Made by a program: the position numbers and the translations under genes. 64,000 nt of DNA, from NCBI GenBank assembly GCA_963771075.1, contig CAVYSE010000001.1:32001-96000 (forward strand), given 5' to 3'. Positions 1,854 through 13,975 of this stretch are shown one piece after another (position 1 is the first letter of the stretch; the number at the start of each line of letters is the position of its first letter). The DNA comes from a candidate division FCPU426 bacterium (GTDB lineage Bacteria > Oederibacteriota > Muellerivitia > Muellerivitales > Muellerivitaceae). Under the pieces are notes generated by a model. That model searched no databases, was not told where the DNA came from, and worked only from the letters and a program-made list of their open reading frames with translations.

Positions 1854-1983
1854 TAAAGCGGTTGATGATTATTTTACGGATAAATTTCCACAAGGCCCCA
1901 GGCCCGAAGGACCCGGCCGGTTGGGAAATCGGGGTCAAGTTGGACGGCAAGGGCTAACCTTTTCAGTGTTGGCCAGGTGACTA

Positions 1984-1997
1984 GGCCCCTTGGTTCA
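1984..1997 (+). repeat. Cassette-boundary motif copy 1 (GGCCCCTTGGTTCA)
   Basis: Identical to 5365-5378; preceded by AGTGTTGGCC (1965-1974), as in the transposase right end. Confidence 0.65.
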
Positions 1998-2118
1998 TTA
2001 TTTCCTGTCTAAAACGAGGCTTCCAAGGAGGTACTTCGTACAAATTGTACGATGGAAAACAAATGGATTTTGGGCTTGGAAGCTCTTACCCCGCCTACCC
2101 CATAAAACAAGGGATTTG

Positions 2119-2390
2119 ATTGGCGGATACTCCGCAAATGAAAATAAGGGAATTTGGGGGTATCGGGATTGCTGCCCAGGCTCCGGACAAACCAACAGGT
2201 CTTGCTGCCAATTAGCCGTCGTCCGCCGACGTTTAATTTGCAGCAACAGCCCAAAATCGAGGTTTTAATTGTCGGATACTCCGACAATTAAAATAAGGGA
2301 AATCTGGGCATTCTTGAAAAATTCAAGAATTTGAATAAAACCCTTATTTTTGATGGGCGCCGGGCGCCCACTCATTTAAAGGGTTTTTGA
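2119..2390. repeat. Cluster of palindromes and an imperfect direct repeat
   Basis: Perfect 14-bp stem TTTTAATTGTCGGA-TAC-TCCGACAATTAAAA at 2263-2293. GGATACTCCG..AAAATAAGGGAA occurs twice. Further palindromes at 2311-2329 and ~2352-2372. Confidence 0.6.
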
Positions 2391-2636
2391 GGGGGTGTCG
2401 GTCCAGCGTCCAATTAACGGATTCGAATCGGCTACGCTCGCTCAATTTGAATTTGTCCCTCGATGAAGAATTGGACGCAAGAATCTGTCCGGTCGGTCAA
2501 ACTTGCCAAACATTGGCGGAATCCCTATTAGACCTTGGAAAATTTGGGGGAGAAATTGGCAGGTAGGGGCGGTCTATCCCGTCTAATTCGCCAAGTCTTG
2601 GCGACCACCCTGTGGTCAGACCCCTATGATCCGATT

Positions 2637-2861
2637 TTATCGAACGATGGCTTTCCCCGTCATAACCTGGATTTTATTCGTTTTGCCCTGGCCCCCGCTC
2701 TTGGGCTGGAAGGGGGGTGTTTTTAGTTTTCCCTTAGTTTCCCCTTTCATCGGGCCCGAATAGGGGGGGCGGGTGTGTTTACGCTTTTGAACCGTCTGGG
2801 CCCAGCTTGCCGACGCCGCCAAGAAAACCACGGCCATCGCAATCGTTAATAATTTCCTCAT
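2637..2861 (-). CDS. Small secreted basic protein
   Basis: AAGGAGG RBS and signal peptide MRKLLTIAMAVVFLAASASWAQ. Confidence 0.6.
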   Translation of the reverse strand: MRKLLTIAMAVVFLAASASWAQTVQKRKHTRPPYSGPMKGETKGKLKTPPFQPKSGGQGKTNKIQVMTGKAIVR

Positions 2862-2876
2862 GAAAACCTCCTTGAT

Positions 2877-4064
2877 TTACGGTTGCCAATCCTTGAATTC
2901 CTTCACTAGGCAATTTCCGTTATCCGCCACGAATAAGTCATCGGTCGTATCCATTGACAAATCGGCAGGTTCAAAAAAACCGTCGATTTCCCCCAGGTAC
3001 TGCCCTTGGACTGAGGCATAAACCACACGGTTCTTTTGGATGTCAGACAGGAAAAGATTGCCTTGGGTGTCCACCGCGACACCGTAAATAAAACCCATGG
3101 GAATCGTCCATGTCGATCCACTGAAGGAATTCGCGAATTGATACTGGGGAGTGAATTTAAAAATGCCCACATTATCCGAACTATCCACACCGGAAGCATA
3201 AAGATTTCCGCCCGCGTCGATCGCCATGGTACAGGGGTAATAAGACCCGGGTGTGGTCTGGTTGAGGATGGAGTCGTCCTCCCAGGCAAGGTTCACGATC
3301 GTTCCGGCGGAAAAATTAGCGACTACCAGGTTACCCTGGGCGTCGATCTTGACGCCGGTGGGTTTTTGGTAATTCCCCTGGCCAGTCCAGGTGTAGTCGT
3401 AAACGGCCCCCTGGGGGCCCAGGTAATAACCCAATACACCGGTTAGTGACGCGGCGATATAAAGTTCACCGTAGGAATCAATGGCTAAGTCGCTAGGATC
3501 GATGGTTGGGATGTCGTAAAGAAATTGGTTGTTCATGTCGAAAATCTGGACGTCGGTGTGACCGTCGCTGACAGCGATATAACCGGCTCCCACCGCGACC
3601 GCCGCGGGGCAGTTAACGGAAAGAGCAGTGACGGTCGGTGTGACCGTCGTCGTGCTGGTGAAAGTGCTTGTGTCGGTCACATGGAACCTTTGGGTGAAAG
3701 TCGGGGTTGCCGTTAGAGTGTAGGTATTTGTGGGGGTGGGGCTTGCGGTAGGCGAAGGCGACGTCGAGGGGGTCGGGATAACGGTATTCGTGCCCGTGGG
3801 TAGGGGTGTGGCGAGAACCACGATGGTTACGGGCGTGGCGGTAGGCAAAAAGGTTGAGGTGGAGACCGGGGTGGTGGTGTGGGTGGCTGTTAAGGTGGCA
3901 GTCAGCGTGCCCGATGGAAAGGTCGGGGTGTAGGTCGGCGTAACCAGAACCGTTACGGGGGCAGGCGCTGCAGGCGTGGGATTCGAACCGCATGCGATCG
4001 GGGAAAATACCACACAAGCTAAAAACAGCAGGCAGGACAATAAAAGATAATAGGTGCGGTTCAA
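2877..4064 (-). CDS. Secreted or lipoprotein with Thr/Pro linker and NHL-repeat beta-propeller
   Basis: Signal peptide with Cys, TPT-rich region, and repeated P.xxxxD..GNL.V.D NHL motifs. Confidence 0.8.
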   Translation of the reverse strand: MNRTYYLLLSCLLFLACVVFSPIACGSNPTPAAPAPVTVLVTPTYTPTFPSGTLTATLTATHTTTPVSTSTFLPTATPVTIVVLATPLPTGTNTVIPTPSTSPSPTASPTPTNTYTLTATPTFTQRFHVTDTSTFTSTTTVTPTVTALSVNCPAAVAVGAGYIAVSDGHTDVQIFDMNNQFLYDIPTIDPSDLAIDSYGELYIAASLTGVLGYYLGPQGAVYDYTWTGQGNYQKPTGVKIDAQGNLVVANFSAGTIVNLAWEDDSILNQTTPGSYYPCTMAIDAGGNLYASGVDSSDNVGIFKFTPQYQFANSFSGSTWTIPMGFIYGVAVDTQGNLFLSDIQKNRVVYASVQGQYLGEIDGFFEPADLSMDTTDDLFVADNGNCLVKEFKDWQP

Positions 4065-4505
4065 GGAAGGCCTCCGAAATTGCGTTAAATTCCGGATGGC
4101 CGATGATGAGCGGCACGGGACATTCCGCTCCCCAGCGAACGGAGGATATCTTATCCAATGGGCGGGTATTTAGAAGCCTTATAAGGGTGAAACGGTGGGT
4201 TTTAACAATGAGGACATATGAAAATTCACGACGTGTTAATTGTTTGCAAGGCCCCTTAATTCAGAAGGGTTGTCAACTTGCCTTGAGGCTCGCGAAGGGC
4301 TGCGAACTGCGAACTGTCGACTGCCACTTAGCACGAACCTATTGACCAATCACTCACCCACAAGGTGGGTGATGATGTTAGTGATGCCAACTGATAACAG
4401 TTGGTACAAGGTGAGTGCGAGGTTTAGTAGCCCCAATTGAAATGGACAATTGGGGGGGACTGCCATTTCGGTGCGATAATGATTCGGAGAGGGAAGAAAG
4501 GCCAA

Positions 4506-4538
4506 AAGTGTTAAATGTGTTGGCTCGGCCCTGGTTCA
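4506..4538 (+). repeat. Cassette-boundary motif copy 2; degenerate copy of the Y1 transposase end
   Basis: AAGTGTTAAATGTGTTGGCTCGGCCCTGGTTCA versus the reverse complement of the left IR, AAGTGTTATGTGTTGGCCTGACCC. Confidence 0.7.
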
Positions 4539-4559
4539 CAAATAACGTATAGTAAACGT

Positions 4560-4584
4560 TTATAAAAAATACTACTTTTTATAA
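4560..4584. promoter_or_regulatory. AT-rich inverted repeat upstream of the antitoxin gene; possible autoregulatory operator
   Basis: TTATAAAAA-ATACTAC-TTTTTATAA in the AT-rich region before the AbrB-type gene. Confidence 0.35.
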
Positions 4585-4646
4585 TAGTATTACTAATTGT
4601 AAAAGGTATACTTATATATGTAATCACACTATCTGGAGTTGAAATC

Positions 4647-4916
4647 ATGAAAACGACTGAAAACGCCCCAACAAGAACCGTTATTACGCCCAAAGGCCAA
4701 GTCGTCATTCCCGCGAAAATTCGGCGGCATCTAGGCATCAAGGGGAGTACCCAAGTCAGCATCTATGAAAGAAATGGCGAGATCTGCTTGATTCCGACCA
4801 CCCCTGAAACCATTGAAAACAACTTCGGGCTCCTCAAAGGCGGAAAAGGCAAGATGACCCAGGCTCTGCTTGAGGAAAGAAAGAAAGAACGCGAACGGGA
4901 GGATCTTAAATCTTGA
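4647..4916 (+). CDS. AbrB/MazE/SpoVT-family antitoxin
   Basis: ITPKGQVVIPAKIRRHLGI swapped-hairpin motif; overlaps the PIN toxin gene. Confidence 0.9.
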   Translation: MKTTENAPTRTVITPKGQVVIPAKIRRHLGIKGSTQVSIYERNGEICLIPTTPETIENNFGLLKGGKGKMTQALLEERKKEREREDLKS

Positions 4917-5311
4917 AACGCTATGTTCTGGATAGTTATGCCCTTATCGCTTATTTCAACGGCGAGGAGGCGGGTAAGAGCGTCACCGAAATACTGAAAA
5001 AAACGCTAGAGGATAACGTTGAAGCCTATATGAGTGTTGTCAATTGGGGGGAACTGTACTACATCACCCATAGGGAACAGGGGCCGGTTCAAGCCGAAAC
5101 TTGCCTTAAAGTCCTGGGTGAATATCCCGTGGAAATCGTGGATGCCAACCAAGCTTTAACTTTGGATGCGGCCAAGTTCAAGGCCGATCACAAAATGTCT
5201 TATGCGGATGCCTTCGCGGCGGCGCTGGCCAAACAAAAAAAGGCCGAACTGGTAACCGGGGATCCGGAATTTAAAGTTTTGGAGAAAGATATAAAAATAA
5301 TTTGGATTTAA
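4913..5311 (+). CDS. vapC: VapC PIN-domain toxin
   Basis: YVLDSYAL, ELYY, SYADAF and LVTGD PIN motifs. Confidence 0.9.
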   Translation: MKRYVLDSYALIAYFNGEEAGKSVTEILKKTLEDNVEAYMSVVNWGELYYITHREQGPVQAETCLKVLGEYPVEIVDANQALTLDAAKFKADHKMSYADAFAAALAKQKKAELVTGDPEFKVLEKDIKIIWI

Positions 5312-5364
5312 TTTTGTTATTAAGATCACTTCCGTTAAACAGGATAAAGGTTGAGCTTAGGCTT

Positions 5365-5378
5365 GGCCCCTTGGTTCA
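5365..5378 (+). repeat. Cassette-boundary motif copy 3 (GGCCCCTTGGTTCA)
   Basis: Lies between vapC and the MNT gene; identical to 1984-1997. Confidence 0.65.
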
Positions 5379-5491
5379 TGCAGATGGTGGTGGAATTAAC
5401 AAGGGGGATAGATGTTTTCGGGTAGTAGTGTGAGGACTATAATGGGCCCAATTCTGGGTAGCCTATTCGCCGAAAATCTTGAGGTAATGCC

Positions 5492-5815
5492 GTGGGAATC
5501 AATGAGGATGTCGTTAAAAAAATAGTCAGACGAATTCTCAAGGTTTATAAAGCCGACAAGATTATTTTGTTTGGTTCCGCCGCCACAAACCGCATGAACC
5601 CGGATAGTGACATCGATTTATTAATCGTCAGCAAGGGTGTTAAGGACGCGCTCACCGAAAGCGTCAGGATCGACACCGCTTTAGGCGGCTTGGGTTATCC
5701 TTTCGATGTCATCGTCATGCCCCTTGAGAGGTTCGAGGAAACCAAGAACCATATCGGCGGCCTTGCCTACCCCGCCAACAAGTACGGCAAAGTCATTTAT
5801 GCCAAAACCGCCTGA
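5492..5815 (+). CDS. Minimal nucleotidyltransferase (MNT) antitoxin
   Basis: IILFGSAA...DSDIDLLIV pol-beta motif; 107 aa. Confidence 0.9.
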   Translation: MGINEDVVKKIVRRILKVYKADKIILFGSAATNRMNPDSDIDLLIVSKGVKDALTESVRIDTALGGLGYPFDVIVMPLERFEETKNHIGGLAYPANKYGKVIYAKTA

Positions 5816-6218
5816 CCGGGTCACGCAAAAGCTTGTCAATGAATGGCTTCAGAAGGCTGACCCCGATCTCCGCCTAGCGGAATTCCTCCTGGCCGAAAAC
5901 GCCCCCTTTTGGGATGCCATCGCCTACCATTGCCAACAAGCCGTTGAAAAATACTTAAAAGCCTTCCTGGTCAGCCGCCAAATAGAATTTCCAAAAACCC
6001 ATAACATCCGTGAATTGTTGGGGTTCGTCGCGAGTACCGGTTAGAAGCTGGCTCTTGACCTGAAGCCAACTGCGATTTTGACCCCCTATGGGTTTTTGGT
6101 TCGATATCCAGATGACGCCCAGCGCGTCGATCCAAAGAAGGCGGAAATGGCTTAAGGCTTGGCCCAAAAGGCCGAGAAAAGCGTTAAAAAGAAATTGAGG
6201 AATTTTTTTAAACACTGA
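5799..6218 (+). pseudogene. HEPN-domain protein with two in-frame stops
   Basis: YHCQQAVEKYLKAFL, FPKTHNI and, after read-through, RYP. TAG at 6042-6044 and TAA at 6153-6155. Confidence 0.85.
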
Positions 6219-6228
6219 ATGTTATATT

Positions 6229-6240
6229 GCCCCTTGGTTC
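6229..6240 (+). repeat. Cassette-boundary motif copy 4 (GCCCCTTGGTTC)
   Basis: Starts 10 bp after the HEPN stop and precedes the next gene. Confidence 0.6.
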
Positions 6241-6284
6241 GGGTTTGATAATGGGGGGACAGGGGAGAGTCTGGAGACATATCG

Positions 6285-7478
6285 ATGGTTCGAATTTATT
6301 TCGTATTAGTTTCCATCCTGCTTTTATTGGCCATCTTTGGGGCATTTTTCTACATCACCAAGATAAATAAACTCCCCCCGCCTGCCCCCGGGGTCTCCCA
6401 AAAGGTTCTCGCACCTCTAGCGTCACCCACCCCTGCCCGAAAGGAGAAAAGGGGCCCGAAAAAAGTGACCGAAAACCATGTGCGAATCCACACTCCAAAG
6501 GCGGTTTGGCACATCAAGAATAATTTAACCCCGACGCCAACCTCCGCCGTTGAAAGAGGCTCGGCGGATGCCAATAAAATCACTTTTGAACCGACTATGA
6601 TTCCATCTAAGAATATTCCCGAAGGTATGCCATGTCCCGCTCCGTTCATTTATCCATTGCCCCCGGGAGCTCAGGCTCTCCTACCGGAAAAAGCCCAGGT
6701 AATTAGTGACGGGTGGATAAACTTCCCGCGGAGGGAAAAAGAACTTTATGTTAGTTGTACGGTTATTGACCATATGAAGTATTGCTATTCAATCAATATC
6801 TTTTCCGCTCAAGGTGATCATTACGGTCTTGTTTTTCAAAAAGAGTTTTGCAGTATGGGTTTGGGTGAGCATTATTGCCAGCCCAATCCCAAAGACCCCA
6901 CGCTGCTTCTACTTGTTAATCAACTCCCTGTATCGCAGGAAAAAACTTTGGAAATTTATCGATGGGACAGTTCAGGGGTATCACAGATATTTACCGTCCC
7001 AAATTGGGGGGAACACCTGGCGGATCTCAACCATGATGGAGGCCGGCAAATCATTTGCATGAATCGATATGGTCCTGACAATATCCTAGCCTACCGGAAT
7101 GGGGAGATAGTCATCGCCAATTTTGATTACCCCGAAAATTACCATCAGGTAATACAGGAAATGGGTTTTGCCATTGACGATCCCGGCGTGCCGGACCATG
7201 AGAAGCTTTTTAAGGAAGAATACGGGGATTGGCTTCCGGCTTATTTATACGCAGGTCAGCTCCGCTACGGGCTCTATGTTGTCCAACAATTGCGGGAGAT
7301 CGCCAAAAGGTCCACCAATCCGGAAGACCAAAAGGCTCGAGGTAGGTTGGAGGAGAAATTCGAGCGGTTTGAATCGGAAGTAAAGATTCTCCAAGGGAGT
7401 GAAACAAAGAAAATAATGGAATTGAAAACCAAGATACCTTTGTTAGATAAGGCTTTGTCAAGGGACGAAGGGAATTGA
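6285..7478 (+). CDS. Membrane-anchored hypothetical protein with a DLNHDG (FG-GAP/EF-like) motif
   Basis: 397-aa ORF with an N-terminal TM helix, GGAG RBS and a TGATAAT -10-like site upstream. Confidence 0.7.
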   Translation: MVRIYFVLVSILLLLAIFGAFFYITKINKLPPPAPGVSQKVLAPLASPTPARKEKRGPKKVTENHVRIHTPKAVWHIKNNLTPTPTSAVERGSADANKITFEPTMIPSKNIPEGMPCPAPFIYPLPPGAQALLPEKAQVISDGWINFPRREKELYVSCTVIDHMKYCYSINIFSAQGDHYGLVFQKEFCSMGLGEHYCQPNPKDPTLLLLVNQLPVSQEKTLEIYRWDSSGVSQIFTVPNWGEHLADLNHDGGRQIICMNRYGPDNILAYRNGEIVIANFDYPENYHQVIQEMGFAIDDPGVPDHEKLFKEEYGDWLPAYLYAGQLRYGLYVVQQLREIAKRSTNPEDQKARGRLEEKFERFESEVKILQGSETKKIMELKTKIPLLDKALSRDEGN

Positions 7479-7561
7479 ACCGGGTGCGTTTAGAAAGTTT
7501 CCAAAATCCCGGTTGCGCGGCAGGTAAATTGAAACTGGTATAATCCTGGAATGGAAAAAAA

Positions 7562-8576
7562 GGGTCAGGCCAACACATAACACTTAAAAAACAATTCGGT
7601 ATTTGATAAGATTCTGCCATGCCCCGAGCAAAAAGAATCCATTACGAAGGCGCGGTTTATCACGTCACTTCCCGGGGGAATGAACGAAGAAAGATCGTGT
7701 TTGACGATTCAGACCGTGGTTTATTCCTAAAAATACTCGCCGAAGTCGTGGAAGAACATCACCTGCATTGTCATGCTTGGGTATTGATGGACAATCACTA
7801 TCATTTGTTGTTTGAAACCCCGGCCGCCAATCTTTCCACCGCCATGAAGCATTTAAATGGGCTTTATACCCAAAGGTTCAATCGAAAAAGACACCGAGTA
7901 GGACATTTGTTCCAAGGCCGGTTTAAGGCCATCCACGTCGACAAGGAAAGTTATTAGAAGGAATTGTGTAGGTATGCGGTCTTAAACCCGGTAAGGGCCA
8001 AAATGGCGAAGCATCCGAAAGAATGGAAATGGAGCCGTTATCGGCCTACGGCAGGTATTGAGAAGGCCCCGTCTTGGTTGGAAACGAAGTGGTTATTAGG
8101 ATTATTCGATAAAAGGTTAGATACGGCCCAAAAGGCCTATCGAGAGTTCGTGGACGATGGGCTCCAAGGGGGAACCAGCCCTTGGGATGAGTTGAGGCAT
8201 CAGGTTTATTTGGGGAAAGATGAATTTTTGGAAAAGATGAAGGGCCTGATATCGAAAAAAGAAAACATGGATATGCCGAAATACCAAAAGAAAATCATGC
8301 ATCCACCGGTGGAGAAGGTATTGGCGAAGGTGGCGGAAGTTTATGGCGTGAAGAAGGAAGCAATCATAAAAAGCCGAAAGAAGGGAAATGAAGTGAGGGA
8401 TGTAGCGATCTATTTGCTGAAGAAAACGGCTGGAATAAGCTCAAAAGAAACGGCGAAGGTGCTGGGGGTGAGTTCGTCGGCGATTGGGAACCGATGGGCG
8501 GTGATAAAAATGCGCATGGAGAAAGACCGGCAATTGGAGAAAATGATCCGTAAGTGTCAAGTGTTGGCCTGACCCC
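7562..8576 (+). mobile_element. Y1/RAYT-like transposase element with ~24-bp terminal inverted repeats
   Basis: Left GGGTCAGGCCAACACATAACACTT (7562-7585) and right AAGTGTCAAGTGTTGGCCTGACCCC (8552-8576) are near reverse complements. Confidence 0.8.
7619..8572 (+). pseudogene. REP-associated tyrosine (Y1 HUH) transposase with C-terminal DnaA_C-like HTH; in-frame TAG at 7955-7957
   Basis: YHVTSRGN, MDNHYHL (HUH), GHLFQGRF, RYAVLNPVRA (catalytic Tyr) and WKWS. The two ORFs share one frame. Confidence 0.88.
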
Positions 8577-8746
8577 ATTTTTTTTGTTTTTTTGCGAAAA
8601 CATCCAACCTCGAATACCATCGTCATTCTTTAGGATTAAATTCTCCCGGATGTTCTCCCAATGAAACCCCCGCCCGTTTTTTGAGTGCGGGCGCTACAAA
8701 ATGGTTCTTGCCACCCATTCAATGGATGGCGCCGATTTCTACTAAA

Positions 8747-8783
8747 GTTGCACACCATCCTTTTTGCGAGGGCCATGTGCAGG
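8747..8783. repeat. 37-bp CRISPR-type repeat, cas-distal copy
   Basis: Exact match to 12261-12297. Confidence 0.95.
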
Positions 8784-12260: not shown

Positions 12261-12297
12261 GTTGCACACCATCCTTTTTGCGAGGGCCATGTGCAGG
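12261..12297. repeat. 37-bp CRISPR-type repeat, cas2-proximal copy
   Basis: Exact match to 8747-8783. Confidence 0.95.
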
Positions 12298-12319: not shown

Positions 12320-12655
12320 TCAATGTTCAGCCGAATTCGGCGTGATTTGGATAAGTTCAAATGCAGATTCAATGTCAACATCATCTTTCATAGAACTTAG
12401 CGTACCACTGAAAACCGAATCCTCAAAGCACGACCGGCAGAGCGTACTGACAAAAAACTTCTCGGTCTTCTTTGCGAATGTCCCCTTGAATTGTTTCTCG
12501 AGTTTATCCCGTTCTTTTGAATACAATTTCCCGATATACATATTCCGTAAAACCGGCTTGAGACCATAATTCTTGCACCACTGAACCGCCTTGTCCCGAT
12601 GCCGCCAGTTGCGCGTTTCCCACGATACTAGGGTAATGGCATTGAAATTGTTCAT
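12320..12655 (-). CDS. cas2: Divergent Cas2-like protein
   Basis: Overlaps the cas1 stop (ATGA). The LVSWE...R.K....CKNYGL..V....Y.G.L...E...L and LCxxC pattern follows the Cas2 layout. Confidence 0.75.
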   Translation of the reverse strand: MNNFNAITLVSWETRNWRHRDKAVQWCKNYGLKPVLRNMYIGKLYSKERDKLEKQFKGTFAKKTEKFFVSTLCRSCFEDSVFSGTLSSMKDDVDIESAFELIQITPNSAEH

Positions 12656-13662
12656 GATATCGAAAAAAGTTTTTCCGCTCGAAATGGATTGTACTTGCCT
12701 TCCTTTTCAACAAAGTGGCGAGCCAACGCCCTAATCTGGTTATCGATGATCTGCTTAAGAGTATATTGCTTGCCCCGCCATGCCGTCATTTCATTCAACC
12801 GCTTCATGATGGCACCTACCACGACGCTTTTTCCTTCAGGTGATAACAGATATTTACCAACCGCGATTTTTTCAAAATATTTCCGTTGGTTCAGTTTCTT
12901 TTCTATGAAAAGCGGGAAAAGCACCGAGTCGACGATTGGTACGCGGAATTCTTCGACAAGATCGAGCACGAGGGCAGGCTTACCATAGCGTTCACTGTGG
13001 TAGAGGCCGAGATATGGATCAAGACCGACGTAAAGACATGCCCGTTCGACTTCATTGTAAAGGATGCCGTAGCCGTAATTCAGTACGCTGTTAAACTGGT
13101 CTCTGCCTTGTGGTTTACGGCCCGGGAATCTATGGAATTTCTTTAGCCCGCTGAAATATTTGTCAGCGATGTATCCCTCGGTACCAAGGAGTTGCTCCTT
13201 GCCCTTCTCTGAACACGGAACATTGTCCAAGACATCAAAAAGTGTCTGTGCTTGTAAGAGCTCCGTCCCCACATCTTTTTTGTATCGATACGCGAGATAT
13301 CGGAGTAGATCGAGCTGATTAGCGCATTTGCCTCGCACTAATTCTTTCGCGATATTGAACGATCGCTCAAGCGAAGTTGATGCTTCCAGTTGGGCTTTAC
13401 GAAGACTCGCCAGGCCTTTTGGTTCGCTTGAAAATACTCTTCCGATGGGTTTGCCAAATGAACCGAGATAGACGATATCAACATCGTGCTCAATCGCGAG
13501 CTGAACCGCATGAGTCGTGAGCGAGGCCGGCCGAAGTATAACTATTTTCTCCAGTCTATGGATCGGGTATTCTTTTTTCTCTTTAACTTTCGGAAAAGAA
13601 AGGACGATGCGCTCCCCAATTGTGCCGATCTTGGTACCGTAAGTATCAATAAGCAAGTCCAT
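12652..13662 (-). CDS. cas1: CRISPR-associated integrase Cas1 (336 aa from MDLLID)
   Basis: LLGTEG (catalytic E), NSVLNYGYGILY, GLDPYLGLYH (catalytic H) and LVLDLVEEFR (catalytic acidic residues). Confidence 0.95.
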   Translation of the reverse strand: MDLLIDTYGTKIGTIGERIVLSFPKVKEKKEYPIHRLEKIVILRPASLTTHAVQLAIEHDVDIVYLGSFGKPIGRVFSSEPKGLASLRKAQLEASTSLERSFNIAKELVRGKCANQLDLLRYLAYRYKKDVGTELLQAQTLFDVLDNVPCSEKGKEQLLGTEGYIADKYFSGLKKFHRFPGRKPQGRDQFNSVLNYGYGILYNEVERACLYVGLDPYLGLYHSERYGKPALVLDLVEEFRVPIVDSVLFPLFIEKKLNQRKYFEKIAVGKYLLSPEGKSVVVGAIMKRLNEMTAWRGKQYTLKQIIDNQIRALARHFVEKEGKYNPFRAEKLFSIS

Positions 13663-13663
13663 G

Positions 13664-13675
13664 TGGCCTGTCCCC
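13664..13675 (+). repeat. Copy of the transposase end motif at the cas1 start
   Basis: TGGCCTGTCCCC versus TGGCCTGACCCC at 8565-8576 (11/12 identical). Confidence 0.45.
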
Positions 13676-13975
13676 CAAATTTCGTAAACCATCCTTGTAT
13701 AATTACGTACAATATTTAATAAACCAGCATCTGAAAATATAATTCCTCCAGATATTCTTGATTCGAAACAAAAGCAAAATGATTTGAGCGGAAAAAACAA
13801 ATTTGAAGAAAACCCTACCTTCTTGGCTGTTCCTGGCTGGTAGCTTTGCTTGAAAATGCCCCCAATCTGTTGTATTTTAGCTCCCCTTTCTTTACCTTTA
13901 GCGTGTGGGCCCAAATGTGGGCCTTTTTTTTACCCATGAATAGGAAAACCTGATTCCCGTGTGTGGAGTGAAGAG

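Follow-up and report, generated by a model that had tools for sequence, protein, structure and literature searches.

Integrons, with the integrase IntI and their attI and attC sites, and the related clusters of attC sites lacking integrases (CALINs) grow by insertion at a site and carry toxin-antitoxin (TA) pairs as cargo. Elements of the IS91/ISCR type possess a Y2 rolling-circle transposase as well as ori and ter ends and undergo one-ended transposition. Here, we analyze a window of 64,000 nucleotides (nt) from the genome of a candidate division FCPU426 bacterium, in which an island at positions 1955–8582 combines unrelated accessory genes with co-oriented copies of a short repeat and terminates with a transposase gene of the Y1 HUH type. 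The repeats are worn outer stumps of the terminal inverted repeats (TIRs) of TIRYT elements, and neither hairpins of the repetitive extragenic palindrome (REP) type nor attC sites. On balance, we favor the view that the island is a pile-up of one-ended DNA pieces, which would have been stacked at the tails of such ends by a TIRYT enzyme acting in trans. The source genome (designated G000) comprises 28 contigs (C1–C28) and the window is located on C1; other G numbers denote comparison genomes and L numbers denote additional contigs that were compared.

TIRtrons or TIRYTs were named by Di Nocera et al. 2013 (PMC3733652) and are equivalent to TnpA-Y1 subclass 2.1 of Quentin et al. 2018 (PMC6006769), where this subclass is present in 14.9% of the surveyed species. 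The element in the window resembles TIRYTs, as outlined in the main descriptions of both papers, in its Y1 HUH core with NHYH and Y-x-x-x-NP motifs, in its C-terminal DnaA_C-like helix-turn-helix (HTH) and in its unstructured TIRs with the sequence GGGGWSAS; the solo, dimeric and grouped TIR families described there likewise have counterparts here. The 317-codon gene at 7619–8572 (+ strand; Pfam Y1_Tnp) encodes this core and the HTH. The motifs used for assignment to TnpA-Y1, i.e. HUH NH[YF]H, FQ and the class 2 motif Y---NP (Table 1 in PMC6006769), appear in its translation as NHYH, HLFQGRF and YAVLNP, the latter reading YVVLNP in intact copies, and both forms are variants of the listed Y[IV]HLNP. 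The C-terminus matches PF08299 (Bac_DnaA_C) with an E-value of 1–2e-5 and 24.9–25.7 bits, which is below the cut-off of 31.5. The gene is flanked by 32-nt inverted repeats that are 88% identical (left TIR, 7555–7586, – strand; right TIR, 8551–8582, + strand), GGGG[AT][CG]A[CG] being exact in the right end and containing one mismatch in the left end. The initial annotation of this locus had regarded the enzyme as a RAYT acting on REP sequences. However, the ends are unstructured (dG 0 to -4 kcal/mol; 0 to -2.0 for the TIRs of this element) and no GTAG-tagged hairpin REPs were found beside the transposase gene, the flanks of which are the unstructured TIRs. Judged by its motifs and flanks, the element thus fits a TIRYT rather than a REP-associated RAYT (groups 2 and 3).

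The window copy of the gene is interrupted by an in-frame stop after codon 112 (7955–7957). Three intact copies are present on C5 and C21, which share 90% DNA identity with the window copy and 99% with each other; the family has therefore moved recently. By protein and end sequence, five TIRYT families can be distinguished in the genome, and truncated elements and two-ended miniature inverted-repeat transposable elements (MITEs) are common. Several families have copies at 98–99% identity, whereas the main descriptions of TIRYTs mention few copies, which are about 49% identical to one another, and give no mechanism (PMC3733652, PMC6006769).

The repeat GCCCCTTGGTTC occurs exactly at 1985–1996, 5366–5377 and 6229–6240, always on the + strand, and GGCCCTGGTTC at 4527–4537 represents a degenerate fourth copy. 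According to the ORF list and the Pfam gene calls all four are intergenic. No 12-mer was found three times at a spacing of at least 300 nt in any of 500 local shuffles of 1965–8576, while 66 of 654 real genome tiles hold some such repeated 12-mer; genome-wide, the exact 12-mer GCCCCTTGGTTC occurs 6 times versus 1.45 times expected from an order-4 Markov model. The motif consists of the outer core of a TIRYT TIR and its T-rich tail, confirming the earlier assumption that the repeats are Y1-transposase ends. Individual sites were scored with a matrix built from 27 distinct ends (the four motif sites excluded; cut-off 14 bits) and with an ungapped model built from 11 solo ends with this type of tail, all outside the window, for which random positions reach a score of 15 with P 1.3e-4. 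Site 1988 (1955–1996, + strand, CTTGGTTC tail) is a true end carrying an 8-nt internal insertion, its inner part scoring 21.2 bits at shift -8 in the 11-end model. Site 5369 (5344–5377, + strand) has the exact CTTGGTTC tail and a worn inner part; it scores 22.8 in the 11-end model, a value reached by 0 shuffled positions, and 14.5 bits by the matrix. Site 4531 (4506–4537, + strand) is degenerate and aligns to the 11-end model with gaps (ungapped score -5.7; nhmmer E 1.1 for the inner 16 nt), its part 4506–4520 retaining the AAGTGTTAAATGT head. At site 6232 solely the 12-nt stump (6229–6240, + strand) is left and the inner part is unrecognizable (-11.4 in the 11-end model); it resembles the stump ahead of a duplicated unit at C28:308378. 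The search also revealed a fifth co-oriented end, overlooked previously, at site 4254 (4229–4262, + strand, tail CTTAATTC), which scores 21.4 by the 11-end model (0 shuffled positions) and 20.3 bits by the matrix. With a general nhmmer model derived from 51 ends, 5369 and 6232 received no score, and 1988 and 4254 had E-values of 80 and 87, respectively. The earlier description of a repeat in one orientation between genes therefore holds, except that the copy at 4527 is degenerate, the copy at 6229 is a stump and the end at 4254 had been missed.

The motif had also been taken for the end of the adjacent element. However, the tails of the latter, TTTTTTTCC and CATTTTTTT, differ from the motif tail TTGGTTC. 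This tail defines a subfamily of solo ends with members at C7:212128 and C24:139267/140249/146565 and further ones in G001, G040, G015 and G007, other genera included; a transposase gene owning the CTTGGTT tail was not found. The proposed absence of integron components was corroborated. None of the five sites has attC features (RYYYAAC/GTTRRRY boxes, bottom-strand hairpin), and contig C1 lacks a tyrosine integrase gene, all 8 PF00589 matches being located on other contigs. No Rfam family was detected at the island, the single match at E 0.41 being unrelated.

Across the genome, the 27-end matrix detected 82 sites of at least 14 bits, as compared to a single one per genome in two shuffled versions, and matrix and nhmmer matches together comprise 88 ends on 21 of the 28 contigs. 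The ends are clustered, 49 of 72 points having a neighbor within 5 kb versus 10.8 at random; even dispersal, which had been named beforehand as refuting, was thus not observed. Solo ends are about 5-fold enriched near TIRYT genes, 17 of 58 being located within 7 kb of such a gene, i.e. in 5.5% of the genome. The remaining 41 lie at a distance from every TIRYT gene, and the three intact sister copies have no solo end within 7 kb. Hence, the array is not private to the adjacent gene, on which it had been thought to be anchored.

The evidence for stacking comes from duplicated units at other loci, which bear out the earlier idea that ends gather DNA in co-oriented stacks. Among 102 ends examined, the inward DNA is duplicated at 53, comprising 26 two-ended copies, 1 at a contig end and 26 others. 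Seven of the latter 26 are one-ended units that start 6–18 nt behind a co-oriented end, whereas fewer than 0.6 are estimated to occur by chance, even if every kb contained one end; by eye, three further unit boundaries follow a core that is missing from the end list. Copies share 7–11 nt past the CCC core and then diverge, and nested insertions into known sequence place the boundaries at +9 and +14 from this core. Visual inspection of 12 two-ended copies revealed no duplication of the target. Unit sizes range from 47 to 2,798 nt, a variable-length one-ended geometry as for one-ended movement. At C7:202339–204382, a 2.0-kb unit that is 98–99% like C1:180851–182961 begins 9 nt behind the end C7:202329. 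It comprises one end and a ParB-like ORF cut at residue 559 of 592, near its 3' end. Next comes a transposase fragment of 110 nt, which is itself one-ended. A 604-nt unit at C11:544382–544985, composed of an ORF, its upstream DNA and an end, lies behind an end stump and is 98% like C27:31852–32462 (by eye), and a one-ended unit of 2,798 nt is present at C28:111191, where the pair does not tell donor from copy. One of the local tandem copies holds 972 nt of a gene that we take to be Fic-like. In the donor-copy pairs the outer boundaries are at tails and the inner boundaries fall inside ORFs; a candidate cut rule, ending in C, is seen at several junctions. Tandem duplications point in the same direction, as 8 of 44 end in an end tail versus about 0.4 expected (3 by script, 5 added by eye at ends outside the matrix), and G014 and G018 show the same geometry, with 120 and 89 nt, respectively. 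Short duplications of outer core plus tail alone exist on C2, C11 and C19. The duplicated unit at C28:308378 is located behind a bare stump. In comparison with TIRYTs as outlined in PMC3733652 and PMC6006769, the copied segment extends beyond the described TIR core, and single ends carry cargo and stack at tails.

These geometries suggest a scheme in which a Y1 HUH enzyme, supplied in trans, would bind one end on single-stranded DNA (ssDNA), nick within its tail and nick again, with little site preference, some tens to thousands of bases further inward. The resulting piece, which might be circular, would be transferred to a nick in the tail of another end, every event adding one further co-oriented end. 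Pieces would become joined one behind another because the T-rich tail outside an existing end is, as we propose, likely the preferred site for cutting and joining. TA pairs would likely be kept through addiction while the ends decay. Escherichia coli TnpA-REP recognizes a single repeat on ssDNA, cleaves at C|T sites to either side of it over a range of more than 400 nt and joins strands (PMC3333891). Chemistry of this kind would account for outer boundaries that are fixed and inner ones that are loose. The likeness to REPtrons and to the amplification of bacterial interspersed mosaic elements concerns the catalytic fold, the loose choice of distant cuts and the tandem amplification of repeats, as far as portrayed in PMC3333891 and PMC8266576. 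Unlike in REPtrons and RAYTs, in the grouping outlined in PMC5581495, there is no GTAG-tagged hairpin here, the enzyme gene itself is copied, and units reach 2.8 kb and carry genes. By analogy, the four gene modules of the island may have arrived by stacking. The broader proposal that TIRYTs provide recombinase-independent gene capture, in which one end plus inner DNA would be copied as a single strand into another tail to yield arrays that can expand and that contain TA genes, ParB-like genes and surface genes, this island included, is tentative and in our eyes somewhat doubtful.

In the island, the first interval contains 640 nt of non-coding palindromic repeats (1997–2636), of which 2008–2070 and 2104–2159 match stretches on C3 within pieces of ParB-like pseudogenes. 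A diverged 48-nt direct repeat in this region (2112–2159/2261–2308), consisting of a perfect palindrome plus AATAAGGG, is common to G002, G004, G015, G016 and G018. There follow, on the – strand, a 74-aa ORF without Pfam match (2637–2861) and the gene of a 395-aa Thr/Pro-rich NHL-repeat protein (2877–4064; PF01436, E 3e-11), whose lipoprotein signal was judged by eye. Owing to the fifth end at 4229–4262, the stretch 4263–4537 becomes a gene-free interval, and 4263–4505 partly resembles non-coding DNA inside the ends C1:182951 (75% over 57 nt) and C18:234289 (73% over 67 nt). The next two intervals hold TA pairs on the + strand, identified by Pfam: AbrB/MazE antitoxin (4647–4916) and VapC/PIN toxin (4913–5311; whole module 4647–5311), followed by MNT (5492–5815; NTP_transf_2) and HEPN (5799–6218), the latter gene with two in-frame stops. 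The MNT-HEPN module (5403–6218) has a sharp left boundary of its own at 5403. The last interval contains the gene of a 397-aa membrane-anchored protein (6285–7478, + strand), which belongs to no Pfam family and has relatives at 21–30% identity in 7 of 30 family genomes. The gene calls hence agree with one module per interval, as had been stated, apart from the gene-free interval and the additional palindromic repeats and ParB-like debris in the first one.

The MNT-HEPN module also bears on how cassettes would be delimited. Its relatives are 78–84% identical and have different neighbors, and the homology starts at 5403 in G014, in G034 and in two groups of metagenome contigs, L021–23 and L025–26; this left boundary is too sharp for drift. 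The same 40 nt led by GGGGATAG at the module start (window 5403–5445) are found in five unrelated contexts. As an opposite-facing end of another TIRYT family, GGGGATAG at 5404 had no second copy in the genome, and GGGGACAG at 6255 gave chance-like matches only. A scan of 380 kb at 80 of 371 metagenome loci for MNT relatives bounded by ends yielded 1 weak end (11.7 bits) with the matrix, which sees only G000-like end families. G014 and G041 contain DNA relatives of AbrB-VapC (72–74%), which have no scored end next to them. Since relatives of both modules are found without ends, both modules also move without them. Moreover, donor-copy pairs are cut inside ORFs, and the earlier notion of gene-delimited cassettes is not supported.

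Several results weigh against stacking at this island. No donor copy of any of its modules was found in the own genome, the MNT-HEPN homology begins 26 nt from the motif, and no scored end lies beside any MNT-HEPN relative. Site 6232 lacks the inner repeat and site 4531 scores poorly without gaps. Near-identical DNA is present in four runs from four studies, one of which is possibly the source of the window; the comparison is based on assembled contigs and covers part of the joint tables, with 105 pieces and 36 loose ends outside the covered part. Among the joints listed none skips a module, the sole one being unrelated to the motif, and the contigs listed bridge 1996, 4531 and 5377 unchanged. 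Gain or loss at the motif, as had been envisaged for strain comparisons, was accordingly not seen, and indel boundaries could not be tied to it here. A weak sign in favor of stacking is a single X3 contig of 99% identity, which follows 5337–6240 and then stops, its last 7 letters extending past the match precisely where the tail lies. Neither a syntenic locus nor an empty site was found in two overlapping sets of 30 relatives and of 30 family genomes, and a chloride-channel gene has different neighbors in G001. The 7 stacked cases from elsewhere in the genome include 2 elements that are interrupted by a further end and 3 tandem copies at the same locus, so that only 2 are distant copies with cargo. 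Neighboring ends outside two-ended elements are on the same strand in 20 and on opposite strands in 13 cases; co-orientation is thus modest genome-wide. Finally, the participation of TIRYTs in stacking is deduced from the geometry of sequences.

The ends worn to unequal degrees could also be debris: complete TIRYT elements and MITEs would have hit a dispensable hotspot, deletions would have left single ends, and the genes would have come otherwise. The occurrence of TA modules elsewhere without ends, the separate boundary of MNT-HEPN, the abundance of truncated elements and two-ended MITEs, and the presence of another mobile system at the same spot (a 37-nt Cas1-Cas2-linked repeat at 8747) are all in line with such a history. 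However, all five solo sites face the same direction, the chance of a common direction being 1 in 16, tblastn and blastn detected no transposase remnant inward of them, three share an exact 12-nt tail, and tail-anchored duplications elsewhere are far above chance. We regard debris as rather unlikely, though it has to be taken seriously. Still less probable is that merely some of the sites are ends, the copies at 6229 or 4527 being coincidental. The ungapped scores of 6232 (-11.4) and 4531 (-5.7) as well as the 10 occurrences of GGCCCTGGTTC in the genome would agree with this, but the absence of any thrice-repeated 12-mer in 500 shuffles, the AAGTGTTAAATGT head retained at 4506–4520, the duplications of outer core plus tail on C2, C11 and C19 and the bare stump before the C28:308378 unit make coincidence very improbable.

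A dedicated integron-like platform, in which the adjacent Y1 gene would anchor an ordered array and insert gene-sized cassettes with a defined closing site, would account for the co-orientation of the five sites with the right TIR, for the gene modules in four intervals, two of them TA pairs, for the enrichment of solo ends around TIRYT genes and for the C11 unit with its ORF and upstream DNA. Yet, most solo ends (41 of 58) are remote from such genes, intact sisters have none nearby, the tail is unlike that of the adjacent element, inner boundaries cut ORFs, one interval is gene-free and the adjacent transposase gene is broken. We therefore consider this platform improbable, and stacking of one-ended pieces at tails remains the reading we prefer.

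Other features were noticed around the ends. ParB-like genes or pieces are repeatedly found beside solo ends (C1:182951, C7:204372, C13:2575, C3:4580, C23:111675, C28:111191), which gives the impression that one end subfamily carries them regularly. Another element, starting with TAACATGAAAAAGG, sits at the identical point in TIRYT ends, directly after CCTGA (C11:540933, C19 near 78950, C28:111100), and is possibly of the IS200/IS605 type, targeting TIRYT ends. The tail of the one-ended piece C3:99890–99946 lies, by eye, within an apparent part of a tRNA gene. Downstream of the island, two identical 37-nt CRISPR-like repeats (8747–8783 and 12261–12297), beside lone cas2 (12320–12655) and cas1 (12652–13914) genes, enclose a 3.5-kb insert with a dnaX paralog lacking the first codons and a gene of a 603-aa membrane protein; from exactly 8784, the DNA is 72% like G015:C24. 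The genome contains 29 such repeats, and they also occur in G001, G002, G004 and G014. Seven co-oriented copies are found at C3:410875–414199 (spacing 131–936 nt) and 6 at C8:13496–44765 (535–14,137 nt). These arrays look like Cas1-Cas2 capture of kilobase DNA, for which a literature search retrieved nothing. TIRYT ends abut or adjoin this repeat at C15:2773–2818, C27:43270–43333 and C1:182951–183050 and at L014:11975–12048 of G002; the leader on the cas2 side is cut short by the tail of an end at C1:182961.

Literature searches retrieved no description of TIRYT cassettes or stacking, although the supplementary lists of PMC3733652 and PMC6006769 may hold grouped TIRs with intervening genes, and no experiment on subclass 2.1. 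With integrons and CALINs, the island shares co-oriented sites between unrelated accessory genes, TA cargo and, in the proposed scheme, growth by insertion at a site. It differs from them as the contig lacks an IntI-type gene, as attC boxes, hairpins and a single anchor are missing, as inner boundaries are not gene-delimited and as sites are scattered genome-wide. The likeness to IS91/ISCR is that a single HUH-recognized end would mobilize neighboring DNA, the length of which varies, and that the target is not duplicated, but here the enzyme is of the Y1 type (Pfam Y1_Tnp), the ends are symmetric inverted repeats and the target would be the tail of another end. The island is thus somewhat like integrons in geometry and somewhat like one-ended IS91 movement in its boundaries, being a member of neither. 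The genome offers donor-copy pairs that fix the copy limits at about 7–14 nt outside the TIR core and suggest tails as targets; with these pairs and with intact enzymes and substrates named, TIRYT function becomes directly testable. If one-ended stacking is true, it would represent a further route to integron-like gene arrays.

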